A stretch of 64,000 nt of DNA from Malacoraja senta (Eukaryota), in assembly GCA_038087875.1 (NCBI GenBank), contig CM075991.1:10914001-10978000 (forward strand). The letters are read 5' to 3'. Below, piece by piece: positions 6,970 to 47,156 of the stretch (its first letter is position 1; every line of letters begins with the position of its first letter). A model generated the notes under the pieces. The model had not been told where the DNA came from. It searched no databases and saw nothing but the letters and a program-made list of their open reading frames with translations. The position numbers were made by a program, and so were the translations under genes.

Positions 6970-7471
6970 ATAGGTGCAGGAGCAGGCCATTCAGCCCTTC
7001 AAGAGTGCACCGCAATTCATTGTGATCATGGCTGATCATCCACAATCAGTAACCCGTGCCTGCCTTCTCCCCGTATCCCTTGATTCCGCTGGCCCCTAGA
7101 GTTCTATCTAACTTTCTTTTAAATTCATCCAGTGATTTGGCCTCCACTGCCTTCTGTGGCAGAGAATTCCACAAATCCGCAACTCTCTGAGTGAAAAAGT
7201 TTTTTCTCATCTCAGTTTTAATTGGCCTCCCCTTTATTCTTAGACTGTGGCCCCCTGATTCTGGACTCCCCCAACATTGGGAACATTTTTCCTGCATCTA
7301 CCTTGTCCAGTCCTTTTATAATCTTATACGCTTCTATAAGATCCCCCCCTCATCCTTCTAAATTCCAGTGAATGCAAAGCCCAGTCTTTCCAATCTTTCT
7401 TCAGACGACAGTCCCGCCATCCCGGGGATTAACCTCGTGAACCGACGCTGCACTGCCTCAATAACAAGGAT
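6970..7471 (-). mobile_element. CR1 LINE 3' fragment
   Basis: ORFs 7046-7297 and 7358-7564 show IEAVQRRFTRLIPG...ERLERLG and FFTQRV..LWNSLP motifs. Confidence 0.85.
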
Positions 7472-7525
7472 GGGGTGGGAGATTGCAACCTTCACGTGGT
7501 CCGCCCTGTTTCGACGAATGCAATC
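7472..7525 (+). ncRNA. Predicted minimal HDV-like (CPEB3-type) self-cleaving ribozyme
   Basis: P1 GGGGTGG/CCGCCCT with G1-U wobble, P2 GATTGCA/TGCAATC, P3 ACC/GGT, L3 TTCACGT, vestigial P4 T-TTCG-A, J4/2 CGAA. Confidence 0.8.
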
Positions 7526-7610
7526 AACCTGGCGTGCACAATCAAATAAGAACAAATAGAACAAGTTGTCCTACAACTTTTCGGCTGTGCACGCCATACG
7601 CAAGAAGAAG
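7472..7610 (+). mobile_element. Short retroposon with a 5' HDV-like ribozyme and (GAA)n tail, copy 1
   Basis: TSD AATAACAAGGAT (7460-7471) / AATAGCAAGGAT (7611-7622); five more copies in the window. Confidence 0.85.
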
Positions 7611-10600
7611 AATAGCAAGGATGTCCTTCCTCAAATTCCAAAGACGTGCGGGTCGGTAGGTTAATCGGCCTGTTAATGTGTAGGGTGTGGGCGAGAAAGT
7701 GGGACAACAAACAACAGGTGAGTGGGTGATCAATGGTTGGCGTGGACTCGGTGGGCCAAAGGTCCTGTTTCCATGCTGTATCTCCAAACTAATCTAAACA
7801 TGACTGTGATTCACACCTGGCCAATGGTTAATTTGACTTTATGGAGAATGTTATGCCTCACTTCTTATTGATTCCCTGGGATGCTGCATCTTGTTTTGGT
7901 TAATTTGGTGGTTGAAGATATGTTAAAGTAGCCCCGGGGGACTTGAGGACTGAACCCATTGGGAAAAGGGTTGGCATCCTCTAGTGGATGATGCTGGTAT
8001 CACCCTCCTGCTGACACAGTCATTCATCCAGAAAAGCACAGCCTACTTCACGTGGCCCCGGCATTCCGAAACGTTGCCTATTTCCTTCGCTCCATAGATG
8101 CTGCCTCACCCGCTGAGTTTCTCCAGCATTTTTGTCTACCTTCGATTTTCCAGCATCTGCAGTTCCTTCTTAAACATTCCCTCTCTCTCTATCCCTCCTC
8201 CACCCAAGTCGCACTAGCTTCTCATTTTCACCCTACAAACACTTTACAATGGCCTGTTTCCTTTATCATCATTACTTTTTTTCCATATCTTTCATTCATT
8301 GTTCTTTATCTCTCCACATCACCGTCTATATCCTTCGTTTCCCTTATCCCTAACCAGTCTGAAGAAGGGACTCGACCCGAAATATCACCCATTGCTTCTC
8401 TCCAGAGATGCCGCCTGTCCCGCTGAGTTACTCCAGCTTTCTGTGTCTATCTTCGCTTTAAACCAGCATCTGCAGTTCCTTCATACACACTTTTTATCAC
8501 CAGCTGCTATTAGGAGAACCTAATAATGGTATCAGTTTCCTTTTGATTATAGAGAGTTATGGCATGGGAACAGGCCTTTTAACCCATCATGTCTCTCCCA
8601 ACCATCAGTCACCCATCTACACTAATCATAACATTGACTTCACCCAGATTCTACCACTCAGATACACACTATAACCCAACTTTGATTAGTGCAGGTGTCG
8701 GGGGTTATGGGGAGATGGCAGGAGAATGTGTTTGGGAGGGAAAGAAAGACCAGCCGTGATTAAATGACAGAGTAGACTTGATGGGCCGAATGGCCTAATT
8801 CTTCTCCTATCATTTATGAATTTATGAACCTACTTACCAACCTACACGTCTTTGGAATGTGGTAGGAAACCAGAGCAACCGGAGGAAACCCTTCCGGTCA
8901 CAAGTCGAACATGCAAACTCCACACAGACAGCATTCGAGGTAAGGATCGAACCCATGTCTCTGGTGCTGTGAGGCCATAGCCCTACCAGCTACGCCACTG
9001 TGCCGCAATCTTCTCAAAGTCAAAAACATGCCCAATTTTTATCGGACCACAAGATTGTAAATGATTGAACATTTGTCTTATCCAGTTCTTGTTCATATGC
9101 TTTGTCGGCCTTTGCTGTCAGTCTGATGAAGAAACGTCTCAAACCGAAACATCACCTGGGTCTGAAGAAGGGTCTCAACATGGAACGTCACCTATCCATG
9201 TTCTCCAGAGATGCTGTCAGAAGTGGTAAATTACTCCAGCACTTTGTATCCTTTTGAGTCTTAACCAGCATCTGCATTTCTAAGTTTCTACGACTAAAGA
9301 GGAAATACTTTATCCTTGATCGAACTTTGCTGGCTTTACCTTGCACCTAACGTTATGTATCTATACACTGTAAATGGGTCGATTGTAATCATGTATTGTC
9401 TTTCTGCTGACTGGTTAGCATGCAACAAAAGCTTTTCACTGTACCTCAGTACACGTGACAATAAACTAAACTGAACTACTTTAACAGCATGTAATTCTCA
9501 AAGCAGCAAGCCCATCTTTCCCAGTTAGATTGGTAATATAAGACTGGACGCCGTGAAGGCCTGAGAAATATTATTCCGCTCCTCCCGGACCAAGATTGTA
9601 AATGTTTTTTAAAAAAGGAAAGATTTAAACCAATCATCTTAATAACCAGGAAGGTGAAGTTTTAAATAAAACTATTTCTGACAAAATTACGTTACTTGGA
9701 AAAGTGTGGACTAATACATGAAACTCAGTAATAGAATCATAGTCATACAGCATGGAAACAGTCCTTTCGGCCCATCCCATCCGTGCCGGGGAAGATGGAA
9801 GAGTGTTTTAAATAATTTGAGTAAAGCCAATGATGATGGGTGTTTAAAATTCCGCAATTCGCAATTCCTTCTCTAAAGGACAAAAAATGTTATTGTTAAA
9901 TACAGTAGCGATTGAAAAAAAAAAGCGTAAATGTTAAAATTAACACTGTGAAAAACTAGGTTTCTAGCAACGATTATCAGCTCCACCCCTAGCATTGCTC
10001 CTTGCCAACTTCCTAGTTCAAATATCTTTGCACTTTCCTACTCACCCCTGAGTTTTGACTTTTGAAGCCTGCAAGTATCCAAAGATGTTCCCTGCACCCG
10101 CCATCGCTGCTTACTGGAGCACGTGTGAAAGTTTGCCAGACCCCAGTGCCACCAGATTAACACCGATGTGCAGCCGAGCGTGGCCAATGAGACAAGGGGC
10201 TGGAAAGCTGCGCTTTTTATTTATTTATTTATTTATTGCCAGTGCTAGTGTCGAGTTATCGGCTTAAAACAGTATTATTCTGAAATGGAGAGCAAGGTAA
10301 ATTACTGAAGTGTTGTTCAGAGACTACAGTGCGTTGTGACAGCATATGTAAGAAAGGCCTATGACAGTGTCAAAAATATTATACACCTTGGCCGGAGGCC
10401 CCCTAGATTTTGAGGCCCTAGGCTTCAGCCTACCAAGTCTATAGGTAAATCCGCCACTGGTGAACACCTCCTCCACAGCGAACAACAGACTATTGTGGGC
10501 TCTTTGGCCATCAGCACCGATTTGTTCTATGCCTTTTCATCCCTCTAGTTTCCCTCTCCCCTGACTCAATCTGAAGAAGGGTCTCGACCCGAAACGTCAC

Positions 10601-13246: not shown

Positions 13247-16200
13247 TTCAAGATTCAAGATTCAAGAAGTTTATTGCCATGTCAACAAGTTGATAGGAAT
13301 GTGTCTTGGTTCGCTCTCAGACAGATACAATTCAGTACAATACATCCACCACATACACCACAATAAATAATAAATAATACAGACAATATCGTACGAAGGA
13401 CAGTATATACAGGAAGGACAGTACCCAGCAGCGTCATGTTAAACGTAGGTGCAAGTGCAAAAGAAAATGCAAAGTGATTAGTGCAAATTCAAATATCTGA
13501 TGGCTTGGAGGTAGGTGCTGTCTCTGAAGCGAGATGTTTTACTTTTAATGCTTCTATATCTCCTTCCTGATGGGAGGAGATTAAAGAGGTGATGTGCCGG
13601 GTGAAAGTGGTCTGCTATGATTTTTTTGGCCTTTCTGGTGAGTCTTGTTGAGTAAAGTGATGTCACTGAGGGAAGTGTGCTGCAACCTATGATCTTAGAA
13701 GCTCAGCGCACTATTCTCTCCAGCCGAATCTTATCCTGCGAGGTTGTGTGACCATACCAGACAAGCATGGAGAATGTGAGTATGCTTTCTATGGTAGACC
13801 TATAGAAGTGGGTCATGGCTGGTCGACTGACCCTGAATTTTTTGAGCTGCCGCAGGAAGTAGAGTCGCTGGTGGCACTTACTGATTATGAGACTAGTGTT
13901 GAGCTCCCATGATAGGGATTGATGTATGGTGGTCCCGAGGAACTTAAAGAAGGTGACCTTCTCAACCACCTCTCCATTGATGAAGAGAGGGAGGAGGGGG
14001 GTGGCCTTCTTTCTGAAATCAACAACCAGCTCCTTAAAGGCCTGTCTCACGAGTCTGCGGTCTATGGCGGCGAAACGGGAGGAATCTGCCGCCATAGACC
14101 GCGCACTCGTGAGAAAGTACAATTCCCGAGCCGTGCGGCGGTGTTCCCAACACCGCGCGGTGCTAAAATAAAATTGACAATGTCCAAAACACTATACTCA
14201 CCGCACAACCTCCACCAGTGATGCACAAGTGCGGCACGGCCGCTCGCACGGGCCGCCGCCAGTGTGGGTCGAGCGCCGTGCGTCAAACCTCCTCTGCCAC
14301 AGCCTCCGCCAGTGACGCACGTGCCGCCGCCAGTGAGGCACGTGTGCTGCACGGCCGCATGCACAGCCACCGCTACAGCGCCGCGATCAGGATGGCCGCC
14401 GCCACAGCCGCCGCTGGTGAGTCACGTGCGGCGGGCCGACGTCATCGCAGTCGGCCCGCCCTTTTTTTTACTTACCGCAAGCACGTGGGACCCGCCGTGT
14501 TTGAATTAACTCGGCCCCCGCGCAGCATCCGTGCGGCGCTCCGGTGGATAGGCTCGACGCACTCGCCGTTGCCGCGCGGTCCTCGCTACCGGCGACGCCG
14601 CGCTTCACCGCCGATGACCGCAAACAGGTAAGACAGAGCCTTTAGTTTTTGAGATGTTAAGTATAAGGTTGTTGTTCTCACACCACCTTACTAGCTCCTC
14701 TACTTCCCTACGGTAAACGGTTTCGATGTTATTGGTAATAAGACCTACCACAGATGTGTCATCTGCAAACTTAAATAACAAGACAGAGTCAGAGTGTGAA
14801 CAGCAAAAATGTGTGTATACAGAGTACAGAAGAGGGGATAAAACGCAACCCTGGGGGGCGCCGCTGTTCAGGAACCTAGCCAGTGAGACATGGTTACCAA
14901 TTTTTACCACCTGTTTTCTGTCACATAGAAAGTTATAGATCCATTTACATAGAGATGAGTTGACCCCCAGTTCCTGTAATGTGTGCATCAACTTTACAGG
15001 AACGATGGTATTAAATGCGGAGCTAAAATCCACAAAAAGAATGCGAGCATATGTGGATCTGGATTCCAGGTGTTGGAGGATGGAGTGCACACAGAGGGAC
15101 ACTGCATCATCTACACTTCTGTTGGCTCTGCAGGCGAATTGATAAGGATCAAGTGTAATGCTGGAAAGATGTTTGCATACCAGTCTCTCAAGAACCTTCA
15201 TGATGACTGAAGTTAAGGCAACAGGCCTATAGTCGTTAAGACAAGTGATGTTATTTTTCTTGGGGACTGGTACGATCACAGCTGACTTGAAACAAGCAGG
15301 CACAATTGAGAGTTGAAGTGACCAGTTGAAAATGGAGGTGAGGACGGGTGTCAGTTCATTAGAGCAGTGTCTTAATGTAGCAGGCGCCACACCGTCAGGC
15401 CCTGCTGCCTTCCTGGTGTTAAGTTGGCGGAGCAGGGTTCTCACGTCATGTTCTGAGACAGCAGGAGTAGTGTCGCCCAGCTCTGTGGTTAAAGAGGGAG
15501 ACTGATGGTTGCCCTTGTCAAAACGACAGTAAAAGTCATTGAGCCTCCCAGGGAGGGAGGGGTCGCTGTCTAGAACATGGTGCTTGGTTTTATAGTCTGT
15601 GATAGCCTGCAGACCTTGCCACACCCCTTTGATGTCATTAGCTTGTAATTTGTTTTCTAGCTTTACTCTGTAGGAAGCTTTAGCTTTGATCGCAGCTCGC
15701 TGAAATTCATATTTCAGCAGTTTGTATTGAACCATGTCTCCATGTTTAAATGCATCATACTTCTTCCTACATAGTAACCTCACATCATTATTAAACCAGG
15801 GCTTGTTGTTATTATAAACAGTCACAGTTTTAGTTGGAATGCATACACTCTCACAGAAATGAATATACGATGTAACAGTGTCAGTGTAGGTGTTAATATC
15901 GTACTGGCCATCAGCCCAGAAGGTGCTCCATTCAGTGGAGCCAAAACAGTCCTGTAAAGTTTCTATGGCTTGTGAGGACCATTTCCTAGAAAGTTTGACA
16001 GTTGGTTTTTCCACCTTAAGTTTTTGACGATACTTAGGAATCAGGAGAATGGTGTTGTGGTCAGACTCACCGATAGGGGCTCCAGCCACAGCATGATATG
16101 CATCGGGTATGGAGGAATAGCATTGGTCCAGTGTATTATCCAGCCTGGTGGCAATGTGGATCTGAGGCTTGTATCTCGGGAGAGCCTTCTTTAGGGTGAC

Positions 16201-16345
16201 GTGATTAAAGTCTCCTAACGCCAGCACAACCGCGTCTGGATTGGAATTCTCCACCTCCATGGTGTGATCGGCCAGTTGCTGCAACGCAGACGGAGCTGAG
16301 GTGCTCGGTGGTATGTAGACAGCGGCCAGGATGATGGAGGATTAA
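13247..16345 (-). mobile_element. Rex1/Babar non-LTR retrotransposon, 5'-truncated, split by a Harbinger MITE
   Basis: ORF 14605-16284 has partial APE (GDFN, SDH) and RT (LNDYRPVALT, DFSSAFNT, GAPQG, FADD). It continues at 14035-13478 (KELVVDFRK...LLPSGRRYRS) with one in-frame stop at ~13703; (TCTTGAA)n tail. Confidence 0.92.
14037..14641. mobile_element. GC-rich non-autonomous PIF/Harbinger element (MITE)
   Basis: TTA TSD (14034-36, 14642-44); imperfect TIRs AAGGCCTGTCTCAC / GTAAGACAGAGCCT; removal restores the Rex1 frame ISKTKELVVDF. Confidence 0.85.
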
Positions 16346-36639: not shown

Positions 36640-37858
36640 AAACCAAGACGACATGAACAAATGAACTTGCTTATTCTTCCAACAAGAATATCACAAGGAA
36701 AGTGAATTAACTGAACACTGATTTTTTATTTTTTATTTGACTTCAAGCAACAGATTCTTAGTGAGACGTGGCTAGACATTATTATCTTCGCTGGAACATT
36801 GTGCTATGTAATTCAAGGACACTACGTGCTCAAACGAGGAAAACCTGATAACGGGACGAACTGCTGGGCTGAGAGTGAAAAACATCACATGGCTTATATT
36901 GTTTATAAAAAACTGAAAAAACTGAGAACTAATAATAATTAACAATTAACAATACTAATATAGAAATAGCAATTGAAATAGATAAAAAATGTGCAGTCTG
37001 CTCTGTTTAGCAGATAACAGCAAGTGCTATGCAGCTCGAGAGTGGAGGGAGGGGGAGACCGGGTACCTGGCATAACTCCAGGAGCCAGACTCCCGTTAAC
37101 CCTTCCAGCGAACAGCTCATTTTTAACAATATTAAAATCAATTTAAAATAGTTAAGAGATAATATACACTCGAGGTTGATATGAAAAATATATACGGCTT
37201 ATATAGTTTTACAAAATGCTGAGAATTAATCATAATTAATAATTAACAATACTAATATAGAAATAATATTTGAAACTGATAAAACTGTGGTGCCTGCGTC
37301 ATAACGCAGACAGCAGTTATCACCTATGTTCGCAGCTCGTGGAGAGGAGAAGAGATCAGGCACCTGGCACAATTCCAGGAACCTGACTCCGGTTAATCCA
37401 CTCAGTAAACCGCTCACTTTAACAATACTAAATTCATTTTAAAATAGTTAAGAGATAAAGAGTGAGTAGGATATGGAATCGAATACATTTGACATATATA
37501 TAAATTGTAACTGGGTGAAATAGAACTGAATTGGAAACGGTAATGACCCCATAGATTTTGGGTAAGAAATACAGCGGGGCTAACTTTATACCAACTACGC
37601 CGGAAGCGTTATGGATGTCGTACCCCACAGACGAGTGGGCCACTCACTACGGTGTTGAAATTTTAGACACCGTAAATTTATTTGATTTATATATATATTT
37701 TTTTTTAATCACAATATGTCACATCTGTGTGTTTTTTCTTCAAGGACAATCGCGCAGGAGAACTACCAAGGAAGTCTATAATAGAAATACTCCCAAAATA
37801 ACCAGAGTCCGGAGGTATGAACGCACCACAATAATTAAGGTCATTAAAATTGGTAAAA

Positions 37859-40800
37859 ATGCATGACGACAATCAAAAGAAAATAGGAGGAATCACATTA
37901 TGTAGTTGGAATATAAGGGGGATTAATGAACCTATTAAAAGGGGCAAGATACTAGCTCAGTTGAAATCATACAACACGGACATAGCGTTTCTACAGGAAA
38001 CACATCTTAAACAGCAAGATCAGACAAGACTGAGGGCGAACTGGATAGGCCAAACATTTCACTCTTCATTTACCTCTAAATCTAGAGGTACTGCAATTAT
38101 TATTCGTAAAGGAATTCCATTTAAACCAAAGAACACTATTTTAGATAAGGAAGGGAGATATCTTATAGTAGCAGGGGAGATCAATAATATGCCAATCACG
38201 CTGGTAAACATATATGCGCCCAACTTTGATAACCCTCAATTTTTTAATAAAATTCTGAATATAATTGCAGAATCTAATTATCAAAATGTTATAATCGGAG
38301 GAGATTTTAATTGTGTTTTAGATCCTTATTTAGATAAATCGATGCAAAAACAAAAAGGTCAGACGAAATCTAAAACCAGTGAACTCTTACACACATATAT
38401 GGAAAACACAAATATAACAGATGTATGGAGGATTGCAAACCCGACGGGAAGGGATTACTCGTTTTATTCAATGGTGCATAAAACATATTCACGGATAGAC
38501 TATTTTCTAGTGGATACAAAATTAATTTCGCAATCTTTGAATCCTAAATATCATATTAATGCGATCTCAGATCATTCTTCGTTAACTTTTGTTCTAAAAC
38601 TAGAAGGAATGTCTATGAATAAACCGTTCTGGAGGTTTAACTCACAAATTTTAAAAGACCCTCAAGGGAGTATCTATCTAAAAAAACAGATGGATCTATT
38701 TTTTGAGTTAAATGATACACCAGAGATATCCCCCACGTTATTATGGGAATCCTTCAAAGCATTTATAAGAGGAGTCATTATTTCATTTCAAGCTTATCAA
38801 AATAAAAAGAATAAGAATGAACAAAGACACTTAGAAGATCAAATAAAACAGTTAGATATAGATAATGCTAAAGACCCAACTATGGATAAACATAATAAAA
38901 TACTACTACTGAAATTTCAGTTAAATAAATTACTGTCAGAGAAAGTTATAACATTATTTCAAATCACAAAACAAGAACACTTCGAATTCGGGGACAAACC
39001 CCACAAACTTCTAGCACGACAACTTAAAAAACGGGAAAAAGAGAATGCAATATTAAAGATTAAATCAGATAGAGGGGAAGTATTAACACTACCCAAGGAT
39101 ATTAATAAAAGATTTGCTCAATTTTACCAGAATCTATACACATCTAAAACGTCAATAGACAATAATAAAATCTCAGAATTTTTAGATAATTGTAATCTAC
39201 CACAATTAGAACGCAGGGAACAAGAGGAACTGGGAGCACAAATTACTTCTAAGGAGATAGAAGACACAATAAAAACACTAAAAAATGGAAAAACACCAGG
39301 ACCAGACGGATTCAGTAATGAATTTTATAAATCTTTTTATGATATAGTTACTCCACGATTACAAAAAATGTATACATATGCTTATAAAGAGCAAAACCTA
39401 CCTGAAACACTAGCGGAATCAACGATCATATTAATACTTAAAAAAGATAAAAATATAGAAGAACCAGGATCATATAGAGCTATTGCTTTGTTAAATACGG
39501 ATCAGAAAATAATAGCAAAAACATTAGCCAATAGATTAAGCAAGTATGTTAGTAGACTAATACATGAGGATCAAACAGGATTTATACCTAAGAGACACTC
39601 ATTTAATAATTTGAGACGTTTGCTTAACATAATGCATTCACATAAATCTTATGACCAAGAGTTAGCTATCATCTCACTGGACGCAGAAAAAGCGTTTGAT
39701 CAAGTAGAATGGGACTATATGATCAAAGTATTGCAAAAATTCCAATTGGGAGAAAACTTTATTGCATGGATAAAACTACTATATAACAAACCTACGGCTA
39801 GAATACTAACTAATAATATATTATCTTCAAAATTCGAATTATCTAGGGGCAACAGACAAGGATGTTCACTATCACCGCTGTTATTTGCTTTGGTAATTGA
39901 ACCCCTTGCTGAAAAAATAAGAACACACTCGAATATTCACGGTTATAACACAAAATATTCAAACAACAAACTATCCCTATATGCTGATGATGTACTACTG
40001 TACATCACAAAACCACAAATTAGTATACCAAATATATTAAACTTAATTGAGGACTTTGGATCCTTTTCAGGATATAGAATAAATTGGAACAAAAGTGAAA
40101 TTATGTCGATTAAACCAAAAGATTCAACACATCTCAGGAAATTCCCTTTTAAAATAGCTATGGAAAAATTCAAATATTTAGGAATTGAGATTACTAGAAA
40201 TTACCATGATATGTTTAAAGCTAATTATAATCCCCTACTTAAGAAATTAAATAATCTGATTAAATTTTGGAAAACACTTCCGATGTCCTTAATAGGTAGG
40301 ATAAATGCTATAAAAATGATTTTCTTACCACAAATCCTTTACCTATTTCAATCAATACCTATATATCTCCCAAAAAAGTTTTTCAAAAAACTGGACTCAG
40401 ACATTACAAATTTTATATGGGATTACAAATCCCACAGAATACAAAGAACACACCTTAACAAACGAAAAGAGTTGGGGGGTCTAGCGCTCCCTAACTTTAT
40501 GTATTATAACTGGGCAGTAAATATTAAAAATATGATTCACCTGCTGGACAATTCTGCCCAGCAGGTGGACTGGATTATAATGGAAAAAGGGGATTGCTCC
40601 CCGAATAATATAGGAGCGATTATTCTCTCTCCAATAAACTTGAATAATAAAAATTATAATAAAAATCCAATTATATATAGCACTATTAGAACATGGAAGC
40701 AAATAAAACAGAATCTAAAATTAAGAAACCTATCTCTCTTAATACCAATAGTCAATAACCCATCGTTTAAACCTTCAATCATAGATAAAGCATTTATACA

Positions 40801-41650
40801 ATGGGAAAGAATGGGAATTAAAACGCTCGAAGATCTGTATGAATTAGAAAAATTACTATCATTCCAACAACTACAACTGAAATATAATTTGAAAAATAAT
40901 CAATATTTTAAATATATACAAATCTGTGACTATTTGAAAACACACACAAAAGATTATTATAATATGCCTTCCGACTTACTAGATGAAGCAATGAAGACAA
41001 AGGCGGAATCAGTTAATTTAATATCATACTTATATAATATCATCTTAAATATAGAAATACCCACAACAGATGGAATTAGAAGAGATTGGGAACAAGATCT
41101 AGGTATAAAAATTTCAAAAGAGAGTTGGGATAATCATTTATTACAGGTGCATAAATGCTCGATCAACGTACGACATACGCTTATCCAATTTAAAACATTA
41201 CATAGATTATATTATTCAAAAACCAAACTAAATAAAATCTTTCCTAACGTCTCACCAATCTGTGATAAATGTATATGTCAAGAAGCTACCATAGCACATT
41301 CTTTTGTTTTTTGTACAAAAATCCAAAAATTCTGGTTTGAAATATTTGATATTTTTTCAAAATTAATCAAAATAAAACTGGTACCAAAACCAGAATGGAT
41401 TATTTTTGGAATATCGGAAGGTATTCCTGAATTAAACGTGTATCAGAAGAATTTACTCAATTATGGGCTAATAATGGGAAAAAAGCTTATACTTAAATTC
41501 TGGAAAAATGCGCCCACACCAACAATAAAAATGTGGACATCAAATATGTTGGAAACATTACATCTGGAAGAGATGAGATTCCTCCTAGTAGGCAAAGTAG
41601 ATCAATTTCAAAAGACGTGGTCTACGTTTTTGGACCTATTACAAGCATGA
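37859..41650 (+). CDS. L1 ORF2p (APE endonuclease, reverse transcriptase, CCHC)
   Basis: SWNIRG, LQETH, GGDFN, SRIDY, SDH; PGPDGF, LDAEKAFD, RQGCSLSP, YADD; CDKC...H...C. No stops; first ATG at 37859. Confidence 0.97.
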   Translation: MHDDNQKKIGGITLCSWNIRGINEPIKRGKILAQLKSYNTDIAFLQETHLKQQDQTRLRANWIGQTFHSSFTSKSRGTAIIIRKGIPFKPKNTILDKEGRYLIVAGEINNMPITLVNIYAPNFDNPQFFNKILNIIAESNYQNVIIGGDFNCVLDPYLDKSMQKQKGQTKSKTSELLHTYMENTNITDVWRIANPTGRDYSFYSMVHKTYSRIDYFLVDTKLISQSLNPKYHINAISDHSSLTFVLKLEGMSMNKPFWRFNSQILKDPQGSIYLKKQMDLFFELNDTPEISPTLLWESFKAFIRGVIISFQAYQNKKNKNEQRHLEDQIKQLDIDNAKDPTMDKHNKILLLKFQLNKLLSEKVITLFQITKQEHFEFGDKPHKLLARQLKKREKENAILKIKSDRGEVLTLPKDINKRFAQFYQNLYTSKTSIDNNKISEFLDNCNLPQLERREQEELGAQITSKEIEDTIKTLKNGKTPGPDGFSNEFYKSFYDIVTPRLQKMYTYAYKEQNLPETLAESTIILILKKDKNIEEPGSYRAIALLNTDQKIIAKTLANRLSKYVSRLIHEDQTGFIPKRHSFNNLRRLLNIMHSHKSYDQELAIISLDAEKAFDQVEWDYMIKVLQKFQLGENFIAWIKLLYNKPTARILTNNILSSKFELSRGNRQGCSLSPLLFALVIEPLAEKIRTHSNIHGYNTKYSNNKLSLYADDVLLYITKPQISIPNILNLIEDFGSFSGYRINWNKSEIMSIKPKDSTHLRKFPFKIAMEKFKYLGIEITRNYHDMFKANYNPLLKKLNNLIKFWKTLPMSLIGRINAIKMIFLPQILYLFQSIPIYLPKKFFKKLDSDITNFIWDYKSHRIQRTHLNKRKELGGLALPNFMYYNWAVNIKNMIHLLDNSAQQVDWIIMEKGDCSPNNIGAIILSPINLNNKNYNKNPIIYSTIRTWKQIKQNLKLRNLSLLIPIVNNPSFKPSIIDKAFIQWERMGIKTLEDLYELEKLLSFQQLQLKYNLKNNQYFKYIQICDYLKTHTKDYYNMPSDLLDEAMKTKAESVNLISYLYNIILNIEIPTTDGIRRDWEQDLGIKISKESWDNHLLQVHKCSINVRHTLIQFKTLHRLYYSKTKLNKIFPNVSPICDKCICQEATIAHSFVFCTKIQKFWFEIFDIFSKLIKIKLVPKPEWIIFGISEGIPELNVYQKNLLNYGLIMGKKLILKFWKNAPTPTIKMWTSNMLETLHLEEMRFLLVGKVDQFQKTWSTFLDLLQA

Positions 41651-42087
41651 GGTGCAATAGTAATTTAGAAAAACAAATAAATAAATAAAAGGTATCTGGA
41701 CCTGGTAATGGGAGGTAAAATAAAAATAGACTTGGTTGGTAGTTCCTTCTCTATGAAGTATGGTATAAGAGTCATAATAGAGCGATTGTTCCTTCTTTCT
41801 TTCTCTTTTTTTTCTAGGGTCTATTTTCTAACTTTACTTCCTTCTCTAACCTCTTTTCTAAGGGGCTTTCTTTTCCCAACACTCTTTTGCACTTCACAAC
41901 CTTTGCGCACTTTCTTCACTTTTCTTACTTCTTTCTTTTTCTTTCTTAAAGTTTAAAAAAGTGAAGCGGTACAAAAAATGTATTAATATATACGTGTTGT
42001 ACATTACTGTAATCTACCGTACTTCTAAAAAATAAAAAAAAAAAAAAAAAATAAAAAAAAAAAAATAAAAAAAAAATAAAAAAAAAA

Positions 42088-42436
42088 AGAACACAGAGAA
42101 CATGGATATGTGACCATTCTGGTTGAGAACGGTCCCGACCCAGAACGTAAGTAAGAATTTCATTGTTCTATCTGGGACATATGACAATAAAACACTTTTG
42201 ACTCTTGACATATTCTCCAGAGATGCTGCCTGACCTGCTGCTCCAGCATTTTGTACCCTTTTGCCTCTTAAACATTGCTATTGTTACATCTGCTTTCATA
42301 TGCTAAATTAAATATTTTACATGGTACTTCATCAAAAGTCATTCCCCATGTCCACATCTGACCCGTAGTCAGGATCGAACCCAGGACTCTGGCACTGTGA
42401 GGCAGCAACACTACCACCGTGCCGTCCTTGAATGAA
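42088..42436 (+). repeat. 349-bp direct duplication, right copy
   Basis: Starts immediately after the L1 poly(A); matches 35101-35449. Confidence 0.95.
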
Positions 42437-43314
42437 GTTATTAATGAATATCCAATGTGTAGGAAGGAACTGCAGATGCTGGTTTAAACCGAAGACAGAC
42501 ACAAAAAGCTGGAGTAACTCAGCGGGTCACACAGCATCTCTGGAGAAGAGGAATGGGGAAAAGAGAAAAAATAGCTCCACTCCGAAGAAAGGTCTCGACC
42601 CATAACGTCACCGATTCCTTCTCTCCAGAGATGCTGTCTAACCCGCTGAGTTACTCCAGCTTTTTGTGTCTTTCTTCAGTGAATATCCAAGACCTCCAAA
42701 AGAGATCTTTGCAGGTCTACAAATCACACCTTCCAATTAAGTAGCTACACTTTCCTTTCTCTAATGAAGGACCGTAATGAAAGACTTCTGGAACTTCAGA
42801 TAAATGATGTGCACCAGAATAGTTTGCATGTGATTTCAGCACCTCTTCAAAAAAAAAAAAAAAAAATCAGATATGTCAGGTTTTGAGCTGTAATCTTAGA
42901 TCAATGCTGGCTCATTCCAATCAGTATAAAGCTCAATGTAGTCAGGCACTCTATAGTTTTGCAGTAATGGACTTTGTCTATAGTTTCCTGTTTTGCTGCT
43001 GCCTGCATCCTTAAATAGCAGAAAGACATGTACAGCTTTCCAAGATGAAGCACTGGCTCCAGAAGCAAGGGGACTTTTATCTTGACCTTGACCTCCAGGC
43101 CATGAGGTCCAGCTGTAAGCCTTCAGAACTCTTGCAATAACAAGGAACTGCAGATGCTGGTTTATACCAAGCATAGGCACAAAGTACTGGAGTAGCTCAG
43201 TGAGTCAGGCAGCATCGGTGGAGAACATGGATAGGTGACGTTTCGGGTCAGGACCCTTCCTCAGACTTTGTCTTTCAGACTCCTTCATCACTCTTTGTGG
43301 TCTGAATAAATCCA

Positions 43315-43700: not shown

Positions 43701-43790
43701 TCGACTTACCCTGAAACACTATGGGAAGGAACTGCAGACGCTGCTTTAAACCGATGATAGACAAAAAAATATGAAGTAACTCAGCGGGTC

Positions 43791-43907
43791 CTCATCTTGC
43801 GTATGGCATGCACAGCCTAAAGTTGTAGGACAACGTCCTATTTAATCTTATTTGATTGCATTAGTTGAAACAGGGCTGACCACGTGAATGTTGCAATCTC
43901 GCACCCC
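43791..43907 (-). mobile_element. HDV-like-ribozyme-headed short retroposon, copy 4 (diverged, internally deleted)
   Basis: TSD ACTCAGCGGGTC / ACTCAGTGGGTC; inserted inside a Penelope-type repeat. Confidence 0.75.
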
Positions 43908-44051
43908 ACTCAGTGGGTCAGACAGCATCTCTGTAGAAAAGGAATGGGGAGACCCTTCTTCAGACTGAGAGTCAGGGGAAAGCCTTTCGGCTTTTTTGTT
44001 AATTGTGACCCTAAATATGACTTTGTCCGTGGTGGGCAAGAGCTGAGTCGG

Positions 44052-46862: not shown

Positions 46863-47117
46863 TGTCTGTGTCTGTGTCTGTGTCTGTGTCTGTGTCTGTG
46901 TCTGTGTCTGTGTCTGTGTCTGTGTCTGTGTCTGTGTCTGTGTCTGTGTCTGTGTCTGTGTCTGTGTCTGTGTCTGTGTCTGTGTCTGTGTCTGTGTCTG
47001 TGTCTGTGTCTGTGTCTGTGTCTGTGTCTGTGTCTGTGTCTGTGTCTGTGTCTGTGTCTGTGTCTGTGTCTGTGTCTGTGTCTGTGTCTGTGTCTGTGTG
47101 TGTCTGTGTCTGTGTCT

Positions 47118-47156
<39 letters not shown>

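Follow-up and report, generated by a model that had tools for sequence, protein, structure and literature searches.

A dispersed SINE-like retroposon family with a predicted minimal CPEB3-type HDV-like ribozyme as its 5' module

Non-autonomous retroelements with a ribozyme of the hepatitis delta virus (HDV) type at the 5' end have been described in Drosophila and in Trypanosoma cruzi, and they are the closest counterparts of the element reported here, a 139-bp retroposon resembling a short interspersed nuclear element (SINE) at positions 7472-7610 of a 64-kb window (the whole stretch of DNA analyzed; positions 10,914,001 to 10,978,000, forward strand, of contig CM075991.1, GenBank assembly GCA_038087875.1). 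The R2 SIDEs and R2/R1 hybrid SIDEs of Drosophila join a 5' HDV-like ribozyme to a 3' end recognized by the reverse transcriptase of a long interspersed nuclear element (LINE), and they spread through target-primed reverse transcription (Eickbush and Eickbush, 2012; PMC3414825). NARTc of T. cruzi shares an HDV-like ribozyme head (Pr77, L1TcRz) with the LINE L1Tc, of which it is the short partner (PMC3185411, PMC3383444), its first 77 nt being identical to those of the LINE and serving also as a promoter. HDV-like ribozymes also stand at the 5' end of RTE, R2, R4, and L1-clade LINEs (Ruminski et al., 2011, cited in PMC3774820), and by cutting at the 5' junction they free the template for retrotransposition from a longer co-transcript (PMC3774820). 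Twister variants in Schistosoma non-LTR (non-long terminal repeat) retrotransposition (PMC8501958) and hammerhead retrozymes (PMC7229834) belong to other ribozyme classes, and retrozymes propagate via circular RNA; they resemble the present element in that a small self-cleaving ribozyme acts as the processing module of a non-autonomous, SINE-like retroelement.

Like the R2 SIDEs, the present SINE is a non-autonomous non-LTR element that combines a 5' HDV-like ribozyme with a 3' end, and target-primed reverse transcription is proposed for it. R2 SIDEs are described as rare, site-specific in ribosomal DNA, and derived from a known R2 or R1 simply by internal deletion, whereas the present SINE is dispersed, occurs in thousands of copies in a vertebrate, carries a ribozyme without P4 and with helices that resemble those of none of the LINEs encountered, and has a body without a match in the candidate LINE considered below. 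Unlike in NARTc, every helix of its ribozyme is different from the corresponding one of the candidate LINE, and nothing indicates that the head acts as a promoter. It shares with the SIDE/NARTc type a predicted 5' ribozyme, the lack of coding capacity, target-site duplications, and a LINE-type 3' end; the derivation of both ends from an identified autonomous element by internal deletion was not found. To our knowledge, non-autonomous retroposons built from a ribozyme and a 3' end have been known only as the rare, site-specific R2 SIDEs or as trypanosome NARTc, and our literature search, with Dfam and Repbase outside its scope, found no report of such a ribozyme-headed SINE.

Two further groups of ribozymes bear on the head of the element. 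Minimal HDV-like ribozymes were reportedly described by Riccitelli and colleagues in 2014. Theta ribozymes are minimal HDV-like ribozymes as well (Kienbeck et al., 2024; PMC10879173), and the present head resembles both in its double pseudoknot, its P4 cut to a short linker, and its length of about 50-60 nt; those ribozymes, however, are described from the microbiome and phages, beside tRNAs, while the present one heads a vertebrate retroposon. With the mammalian CPEB3 ribozyme (RF00622) the head shares L3 (UUCACGU), the start of J1/4 (GU), and J4/2 (CGAAU), all in the same register, and the L3 letters are confirmed by a mouse primer 18 nt from the CPEB3 cleavage site (PMC10919898). Unlike the CPEB3 ribozyme, it scores 11 bits against RF00622, is without P4, differs in P1, P2, and P3, and is multi-copy and mobile rather than a single intronic locus.

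The retroposon and its genomic copies

The element at 7472-7610 is very probably a non-LTR retroposon of the non-autonomous kind, with the size and copy number of a SINE, which carries a minimal HDV-like ribozyme with a CPEB3-type core as its 5' module instead of an RNA polymerase III (Pol III) head, and which would be mobilized in trans after the ribozyme releases its RNA. The parts of the element, and a second copy in the window, are as follows.

7460-7471, plus strand: left target-site duplication, AATAACAAGGAT, 11 of 12 positions identical to 7611-7622
7472-7525, plus strand: predicted 54-nt minimal HDV/CPEB3-type ribozyme (from sequence, Rfam register, covariance model R1, and cross-family covariation)
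7472-7478 and 7501-7507, plus strand: P1, GGGGTGG/CCGCCCT, 7 pairs including the wobbles G7472-T7507 and T7476-G7503
7479-7480, plus strand: J1/2
7481-7487 and 7519-7525, plus strand: P2, GATTGCA/TGCAATC, 7 Watson-Crick pairs
7488-7490 and 7498-7500, plus strand: P3, ACC/GGT
7491-7497, plus strand: L3, TTCACGT
7493 and 7508, plus strand: P1.1, the single possible pair C7493-G7508, G7508 being otherwise unpaired
7509-7514, plus strand: P4 remnant, T-TTCG-A, a 6-nt linker with 1 bp
7515-7518, plus strand: J4/2, CGAA, with the candidate catalytic cytosine C7515
7526-7602, plus strand: 3' domain, an 11-bp stem (7530-7540/7586-7596) around a 7-bp hairpin (7563-7569/7573-7579) in the minimum-free-energy fold
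About 7603-7610, plus strand: (GAA)n tail, here (GAA)3
7611-7622, plus strand: right target-site duplication, AATAGCAAGGAT, matching 7460-7471
43791-43907, minus strand: second, decayed copy of the SINE; its J4/2 is the variant CTAA, and part of its interior is deleted 3' of the ribozyme
43908-43919 and 43779-43790: duplication flanking the second copy, 12 bp, GACCC[A/G]CTGAGT

The ribozyme accounts for 54 nt of the element and the remainder for 85 nt. An automated duplication search reported the pair flanking 7472-7610 as 13 nt with one mismatch. In addition, reads derived from copies of the host repeat free of the insertion passed from ..AAGGATG directly into TCCTTCCTCAAATT (loose ends "7472 behind", agreement 0.84-0.86), and since these reads cross the site uninterrupted, they confirm the insertion at 7472-7610. 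The 3' domain was kept in all full-length copies, and may serve as the module by which a reverse transcriptase recognizes the RNA; the GAA-type tail varied among copies from 1 to >50 nt. The head has none of the marks of a classical SINE, namely a tRNA-, 7SL-, or 5S-derived head with an internal Pol III promoter: ARAGORN found no tRNA gene in 7300-7800, and no Rfam family was matched at gathering thresholds anywhere in the window.

To describe the family, the 1.94-Gb assembly in which the window lies was searched. The 32-nt ribozyme core gave 2,164 exact matches and its reversed control none, while the last 28 nt of the SINE gave 2,409. Copies were sampled in genome order and not by similarity, as 30 heads and 20 tails without an exact head. 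Each of the 30 heads was part of a short element (about 125-140 bp) whose flanks were unique, and 19 of the 20 tails belonged to full-length copies with a mutated head, so that 49 of the 50 sampled copies were short full-length elements; the remaining tail (L092) belonged to a 5'-truncated copy in single-copy DNA. Identity to the window copy averaged 94.4% among 30 unbiased copies (range 87.5-98.5%). Separately, three pairs of SINE loci (L005/L006, L013/L014, and L103/L104) had identical flanks at different coordinates and represent segmental duplications, not independent insertions.

Target-site duplications of 7-16 bp were detected in 81 of 87 copies. Measured against G1, the first base of the ribozyme, the end of the duplication lay at offset 0 in 35 copies, at +1 in 25, at -1 in 10, and farther away in 11, i.e., within 1 nt in 70 of the 81. 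Because the duplication ends cluster at G1, the retroposed unit begins at the 5' base of an HDV-type cleavage product, a result that is independent of any prediction of the fold.

A preliminary description made from the sequence alone had recorded a (GAA)n end and a duplication of 12 bp for the retroposon, and both are present, the duplication with 11 of 12 positions identical. It had also listed the parts of a nested HDV-type pseudoknot at 7472-7525, each of which we found at its position when the sequence was checked. Its proposal of a retroposon family is now backed by the 2,164 exact cores with unique flanks and duplications of 7-16 bp.

The fold of the head and its sister ribozymes

The topology of the head is that of the HDV class: P1 and P2 are interleaved, P3 lies within P1, P1.1 joins L3 to J1/4, and P4 lies between P1 and J4/2. 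The wobble G7472-T7507 closes P1 at the predicted cleavage site, and C7515 is followed by G-A-A. To estimate how often such a fold arises by chance, we used a strict descriptor of our own (G1, a 7-bp P1 with at most two G-U pairs, J1/2 of 0-5 nt, P2 of 6-7 bp, a 3-bp Watson-Crick P3, L3 of 6-8 nt, and CNRA before P2'). It matched the real window once, at 7472, and 244 dinucleotide shuffles, both strands searched, five times (~0.02 per window); a looser descriptor gave 0.43 matches per shuffle. Considering these chance rates, the fold alone is unusual and is not proof, and it is the family-level evidence that lifts it above chance. The looser descriptor also gave four more starts at ~47032-47140 on both strands (47136, 47138, and 47140 on the plus strand, and 47032 in minus-strand coordinates); they probably lie in a simple or low-complexity repeat, and none passed the strict descriptor or model R1 (below).

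When Rfam models were run with a 63-nt search space, 7472-7525 aligned in register with HDV-F-prausnitzii (14.4 bits, E 0.53, cut-off 44) and with CPEB3_ribozyme (RF00622; 11 bits, E 0.97, cut-off 35). The letters common to the head and the models were UUCACGU, CCCUGU, and CGAAU. A search of the genome with RF00622 returned 60 matches, and 39 of 59 scored candidates lay above the gathering score, reaching 64.2 bits; the same search gave nothing above the cut-off in any of 14 control genomes. We examined 24 of the 60 matches, which fall into five families, and all 12 sister loci that were re-scanned passed the CPEB3 cut-off (37.4-64.2 bits).

F1: head of a LINE (L113 plus L127), ribozyme 63.8 bits
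F2: full-size ribozyme with J4/2 GCTAA, at loci L116 and L120
F3: head of a second SINE-like family, at L122:229-400 (minus strand), L126, L123, and L136
F4: low-copy, old, decayed repeat, at L124:63-130, L128, L129, and L134; 4 copies within 1 mismatch
F5: further full-size family, at loci L125, L130, L133, and L135

The F4 ribozyme is nearly identical to the Rfam consensus of the mammalian CPEB3 ribozyme in P1, P2, P4, and all junctions; 3' of it, the analysis covered about 140 nt in L124 and 5 nt in each of the other three copies. F3 is built to the same design as the present SINE and likewise starts at its G1. Its elements are about 140-170 nt long, with P2 GGAAAGA/TCTTTCC, P4 reduced to TTT[T/C]CA, and J4/2 CCAA; they score 37-44 bits against RF00622 and thus pass the cut-off, and the head has 12 exact genome matches. 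They end in ..CGATAAGAAG and are flanked by duplications of 10-11 bp, the copy at L122, for example, measuring 172 nt and having GCGAGAAGCAT as its duplication; L126 is similar.

We aligned 21 ribozymes of F1-F5 with three SINE heads (24 sequences, six families) and compared pairing with shuffles. Paired cells amounted to 92.0% vs. 77.4% in shuffles, pairs changed on both sides to 15 of 23 vs. 9.7 ± 1.7, cells changed on both sides to 79 vs. 20.7, and the covariation score to 0.417 vs. 0.160 (at most 0.108 with partners slid by 1-3 columns), and for each of these measures none of 500 shuffles reached the observed value; these figures are to be read with the caveats that the families are related, that cells are not independent events, and that the structure was drawn from the same sequences. 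Double changes occurred in 6 of 7 pairs of P2, 3 of 7 of P1, 2 of 3 of P3, and 4 of 5 of P4. The unpaired core was constant. The P1.1 C-G pair was invariant in 24 of 24 sequences, the cytosine of J4/2 (the C75 equivalent) was at least 90% conserved, and the first A that follows it was invariant. Selection has, therefore, maintained the helices across the families.

A covariance model (R1) was then built from the 21 ribozymes of F1-F5, without any SINE sequence and with P2, P3, and P4 as pairs. Run on the window with E up to 10, it returned two matches only, namely 7472-7525 over its full length (25.1 bits, E 1.6e-4) and the head of the second SINE copy at 43854-43907 on the minus strand (27.2 bits, E 4.6e-5). 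Over 72 fetched loci (224,856 bases) it returned SINE heads only, with 30 matches at E up to 0.01. Together with the cross-family covariation, these results indicate that the SINE head is a diverged, miniaturized member of a lineage of CPEB3-type ribozymes borne by retroelements. By the measure of a single intronic CPEB3 locus the head is not a member of RF00622, being dispersed in 2,164 exact cores.

Variation inside the SINE family was followed in 89 heads, 70 of them distinct. Their majority sequence keeps all helices, and 94.4% of cells are paired vs. 25-49% with partners slid. The frequent variants of the head, present in thousands of reads, fall at four positions: J1/2 has 7479 G>A, P1 has 7503 G>A with U-A in place of U-G, the loop of P4 has 7513 G>A, and the free second position of J4/2 has 7516 G>T or G>A. 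None of them breaks a pair or alters L3, C7515, or the two A's of J4/2, and since they are common enough to mark active sublineages, their compatibility with the fold lends it mild support.

With respect to the fold, too, the preliminary description is supported. P1, P2, and P3, whose retention in a family consensus it had proposed to check, are present with all other helices in the majority sequence of the 89 copies. Detection with Infernal failed with the Rfam HDV and CPEB3 models, which stayed below threshold (14.4 and 11 bits), and succeeded with the model made from the sister families. Covariation in a consensus was likewise absent inside the SINE family and was found across the six families in P1, P2, P3, and P4. 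Its suggestion of kinship to a mobile source of CPEB3-type ribozymes is supported, as LINE- and SINE-borne ribozymes of this genome pass the RF00622 cut-off.

Mobilization of the element and rival explanations

We propose that SINE copies are transcribed passively within longer host or read-through transcripts, that the ribozyme would fold co-transcriptionally and cleave 5' of G7472 to yield an RNA starting at the first base of the element, and that a LINE with a (GAA)n tail, an endonuclease, and a reverse transcriptase would act in trans, its reverse transcriptase recognizing the 3' stem-loop and (GAA)n tail of this RNA. Through target-primed reverse transcription, the LINE enzyme would then copy the RNA completely, up to the first 5' base, leaving duplications of about 7-16 bp.

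The best candidate for such a driver is the LINE of family F1, an apparently intact element of 3.14 kb (L113:72-544 plus L127:1-2680; G000:C1:217550496-217553648) with a 73-nt CPEB3-type ribozyme head. The ribozyme (63.8 bits) is followed by a 29-nt leader and an uninterrupted open reading frame (ORF) of 934 aa with the domains Exo_endo_phos_2 (E 3.1e-8) and RVT_1 (E 2.3e-32); the 3' untranslated region (UTR) is about 220 nt, the end reads ..GACACGAAAAGAAGAAGAAG or ..GACACGAAAAGAAGAAGAAGAGG with a (GAA)n-type tail, and the whole is flanked by an 11-bp duplication, ACAGAACAAAA. Relatives of the 934-aa protein were found in amphioxus, echinoderms (sea urchins), insects, a lizard, and fishes, a spread that carries no information on the host. 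By its build, with a single ORF, short UTRs, and a simple-repeat tail, the LINE resembles the RTE type, and it fits the pattern of the ribozyme-headed LINEs described previously, which, unlike the present SINE, are autonomous. Its 3' end had 209 genome matches within 2 mismatches (the 100 among the matches listed all being exact) and its head 4 exact matches, and head and tail matches lying 3.1 kb apart indicated at least 4 full-length copies. Such an excess of 3' ends over heads is usual for a young LINE most copies of which are 5'-truncated.

The SINE and the F1 LINE have in common the ribozyme lineage, the (GAA)n tail, and the size of the duplication. Moreover, SINE subfamily B, which ends in ..CACACGAAAGAAGAAG, shares with the LINE the bases ACACGAAA before the tail, about 8 nt being alike with a score of 31 vs. 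a shuffle maximum of 26. As the set examined comprises 24 of the 60 Rfam matches, a better-fitting driver may exist among other LINEs. A query with the 3' half of the SINE for an autonomous partner led to full-length SINEs at all 30 loci, and no other element with a tail of at least 4 GAA units was found in the window or in the loci fetched by that stage.

RNA evidence came from two oligo-dT runs (X23 and X24), the reads of which were placed on 7372-7710; words of the element were present in sequencing runs under nine organism labels, none of these indexed runs being recorded as RNA. The element was covered about 600-fold per mate direction, and 96% of the placed reads extended beyond it into dissimilar flanks, which indicates that it is transcribed mostly within longer RNAs. 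In X23, 366 reads broke exactly before 7472; their loose parts had a median length of 40 nt and a consensus ending in CAGAGTACATGGG, and we read this ending as the 3' terminus of a template-switch oligo. On that reading the breaks are cDNA ends and hence suggest RNA 5' ends at G7472, as would be expected if copies embedded in polyadenylated transcripts self-cleave.

Several observations weigh against this proposal. As to the driver, SINE subfamily A scored 19 against the F1 LINE, below the median range of shuffles; the SINE body showed no similarity to it beyond the about 8 nt before the tail, these in subfamily B only; and among the 50 sampled ends there was no LINE with the SINE's own head or 3' domain. 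As to the RNA, no places where many molecules begin or end were listed on 7372-7710 in either run, the loose-end consensus was much weaker in X24, the GGG of a template-switch oligo can invade an internal GGGG, which makes that reading ambiguous, and read ends at 7472 cannot separate cleavage from transcription initiation. As to the fold, P4 is a 1-bp remnant, which might lower activity, and the head scores below the gathering score of the Rfam HDV families (RF02682 and others) and of RF00622. The 89 heads showed 0 compensatory changes, and their cells were paired as often as in column shuffles. The copies being young and decaying neutrally from one master, covariation within the family is lacking, and its pairing therefore says no more than that the master folds; it is the comparison with other families that supports the fold.

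One alternative holds that the head is mainly an internal promoter, or a promoter and ribozyme in one like Pr77, so that the 5' end is set by initiation at G7472 and the pseudoknot is a relic or secondary. There is precedent in L1Tc/NARTc, whose first 77 nt are both internal promoter and HDV-like ribozyme (PMC3383444), the read ends at 7472 are compatible with initiation as well as with cleavage, and more than 2,000 young copies would be easier to sustain with a promoter of their own. However, helices that change yet stay paired around a fixed unpaired core across six families point to selection on an RNA fold and not on a DNA promoter, neither ARAGORN (7300-7800) nor Rfam (the window) found a tRNA-like or other Pol III gene, and the great majority of RNA reads continue into foreign flanks. 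We consider this alternative improbable.

It also seems very improbable that the ribozyme is an inactive fossil, in which the loss of P4 ended catalysis and 5' ends are now set otherwise. A precise maker of ends is called for by the starts of the copies, which in 70 of 81 lie no more than 1 nt from G1, the second SINE-like family (L122, L123, L126, and L136) keeps its minimal linker and starts at its own G1, and all variants at the level of the master spare the fold; these points outweigh the reduction of P4 to a 6-nt linker and the low Rfam scores, which speak for a fossil. Minimal HDV-like ribozymes without P4 are, moreover, reportedly active. Lastly, that the fold is a chance match in an ordinary SINE or LINE fragment is scarcely credible, for although ~0.02 descriptor matches per 64-kb window would be many over a large scan and the Rfam models stayed below threshold, the fold begins exactly at the first base of the retroposon, was found by a model trained on other families, agrees letter for letter with CPEB3-type ribozymes in L3, J1/4, and J4/2, and shows compensatory variation across families, with its helices kept in the family majority sequence.

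Relation to the CPEB3 ribozyme and further observations

There is, in our estimate, an even chance that the mammalian CPEB3 ribozyme arose by domestication of the 5' head of a retrotransposon lineage which persists in this genome and was active there recently, and the carriers of which would be the intact (GAA)n-tailed LINE, the old low-copy repeats with a near-consensus ribozyme, and at least two families of mini ribozyme-SINEs, one with thousands of copies. If true, these elements would be the outgroup for the CPEB3 ribozyme that the literature calls missing, and, if the host is non-mammalian, it would become possible to test directly where this ribozyme came from and, with it, how HDV-like ribozymes are linked to retrotransposons, which has long been discussed. 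What is new here is a living, diversified family of CPEB3-type ribozymes on retroelements, with a second mini-family in the same genome. In a vertebrate, the design of the present element can evidently give rise to a SINE that is dispersed and numbers thousands of copies, and a 54-nt ribozyme in place of a Pol III head widens the definition of a SINE. In addition, natural variants as short as 54 nt, with six sets of covarying helices, form a series for the study of minimal HDV-type catalysis.

The window holds further repeats. A palindromic repeat (..CTGGAGTAACTCAGCGGGTC.. / ..GACCCGCTGAGTTACTCCAG..) lies at 42460-42690 and at 43779-43960, the second SINE copy being inserted into a copy of it, and this palindromic repeat also occurs in the flanks of other SINE loci, e.g., L011. 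An L1-like LINE at 37835-42090 on the plus strand is AT-rich (30-32% G+C), with an open ORF2 of 1,271 aa (Exo_endo_phos, RVT_1), and ends in a long poly(A) at about 42030-42090. On the minus strand, a reverse-transcriptase ORF of 578 aa (RVT_1) lies at 13300-16341, followed by a G+C-rich, insertion-like stretch of ~600 bp (about 14040-14640) before LINE sequence resumes. Both were considered as partners of the SINE and rejected, since the L1-like element with its poly(A) tail and the reverse-transcriptase fragment look unrelated to it.

The host is a vertebrate and probably not a placental mammal. The first 200 residues of its COX1 agree with mammalian chains at 182 positions (91%), those of pig, sheep, cow, mouse, and human lying at about the same distance, and a COX1 fragment had no named close match in the protein database. 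The protein-atlas clusters closest to the ORF of the L1-like LINE are assigned to Chordata, no RF00622 match exceeded the 64 bits of the F1 LINE, and the flanking repeats may be of a cartilaginous-fish type. The mitochondrial genome measures 16,723 bp. Elsewhere in the assembly, COX1 repeats every 16,723 bp, at least 4 times, on contig C2915 (G000:C2915), and G000:C6182 is a contig of 16,723 bp; this arrangement suggests that a mitochondrial genome in concatenated form has remained among the contigs.

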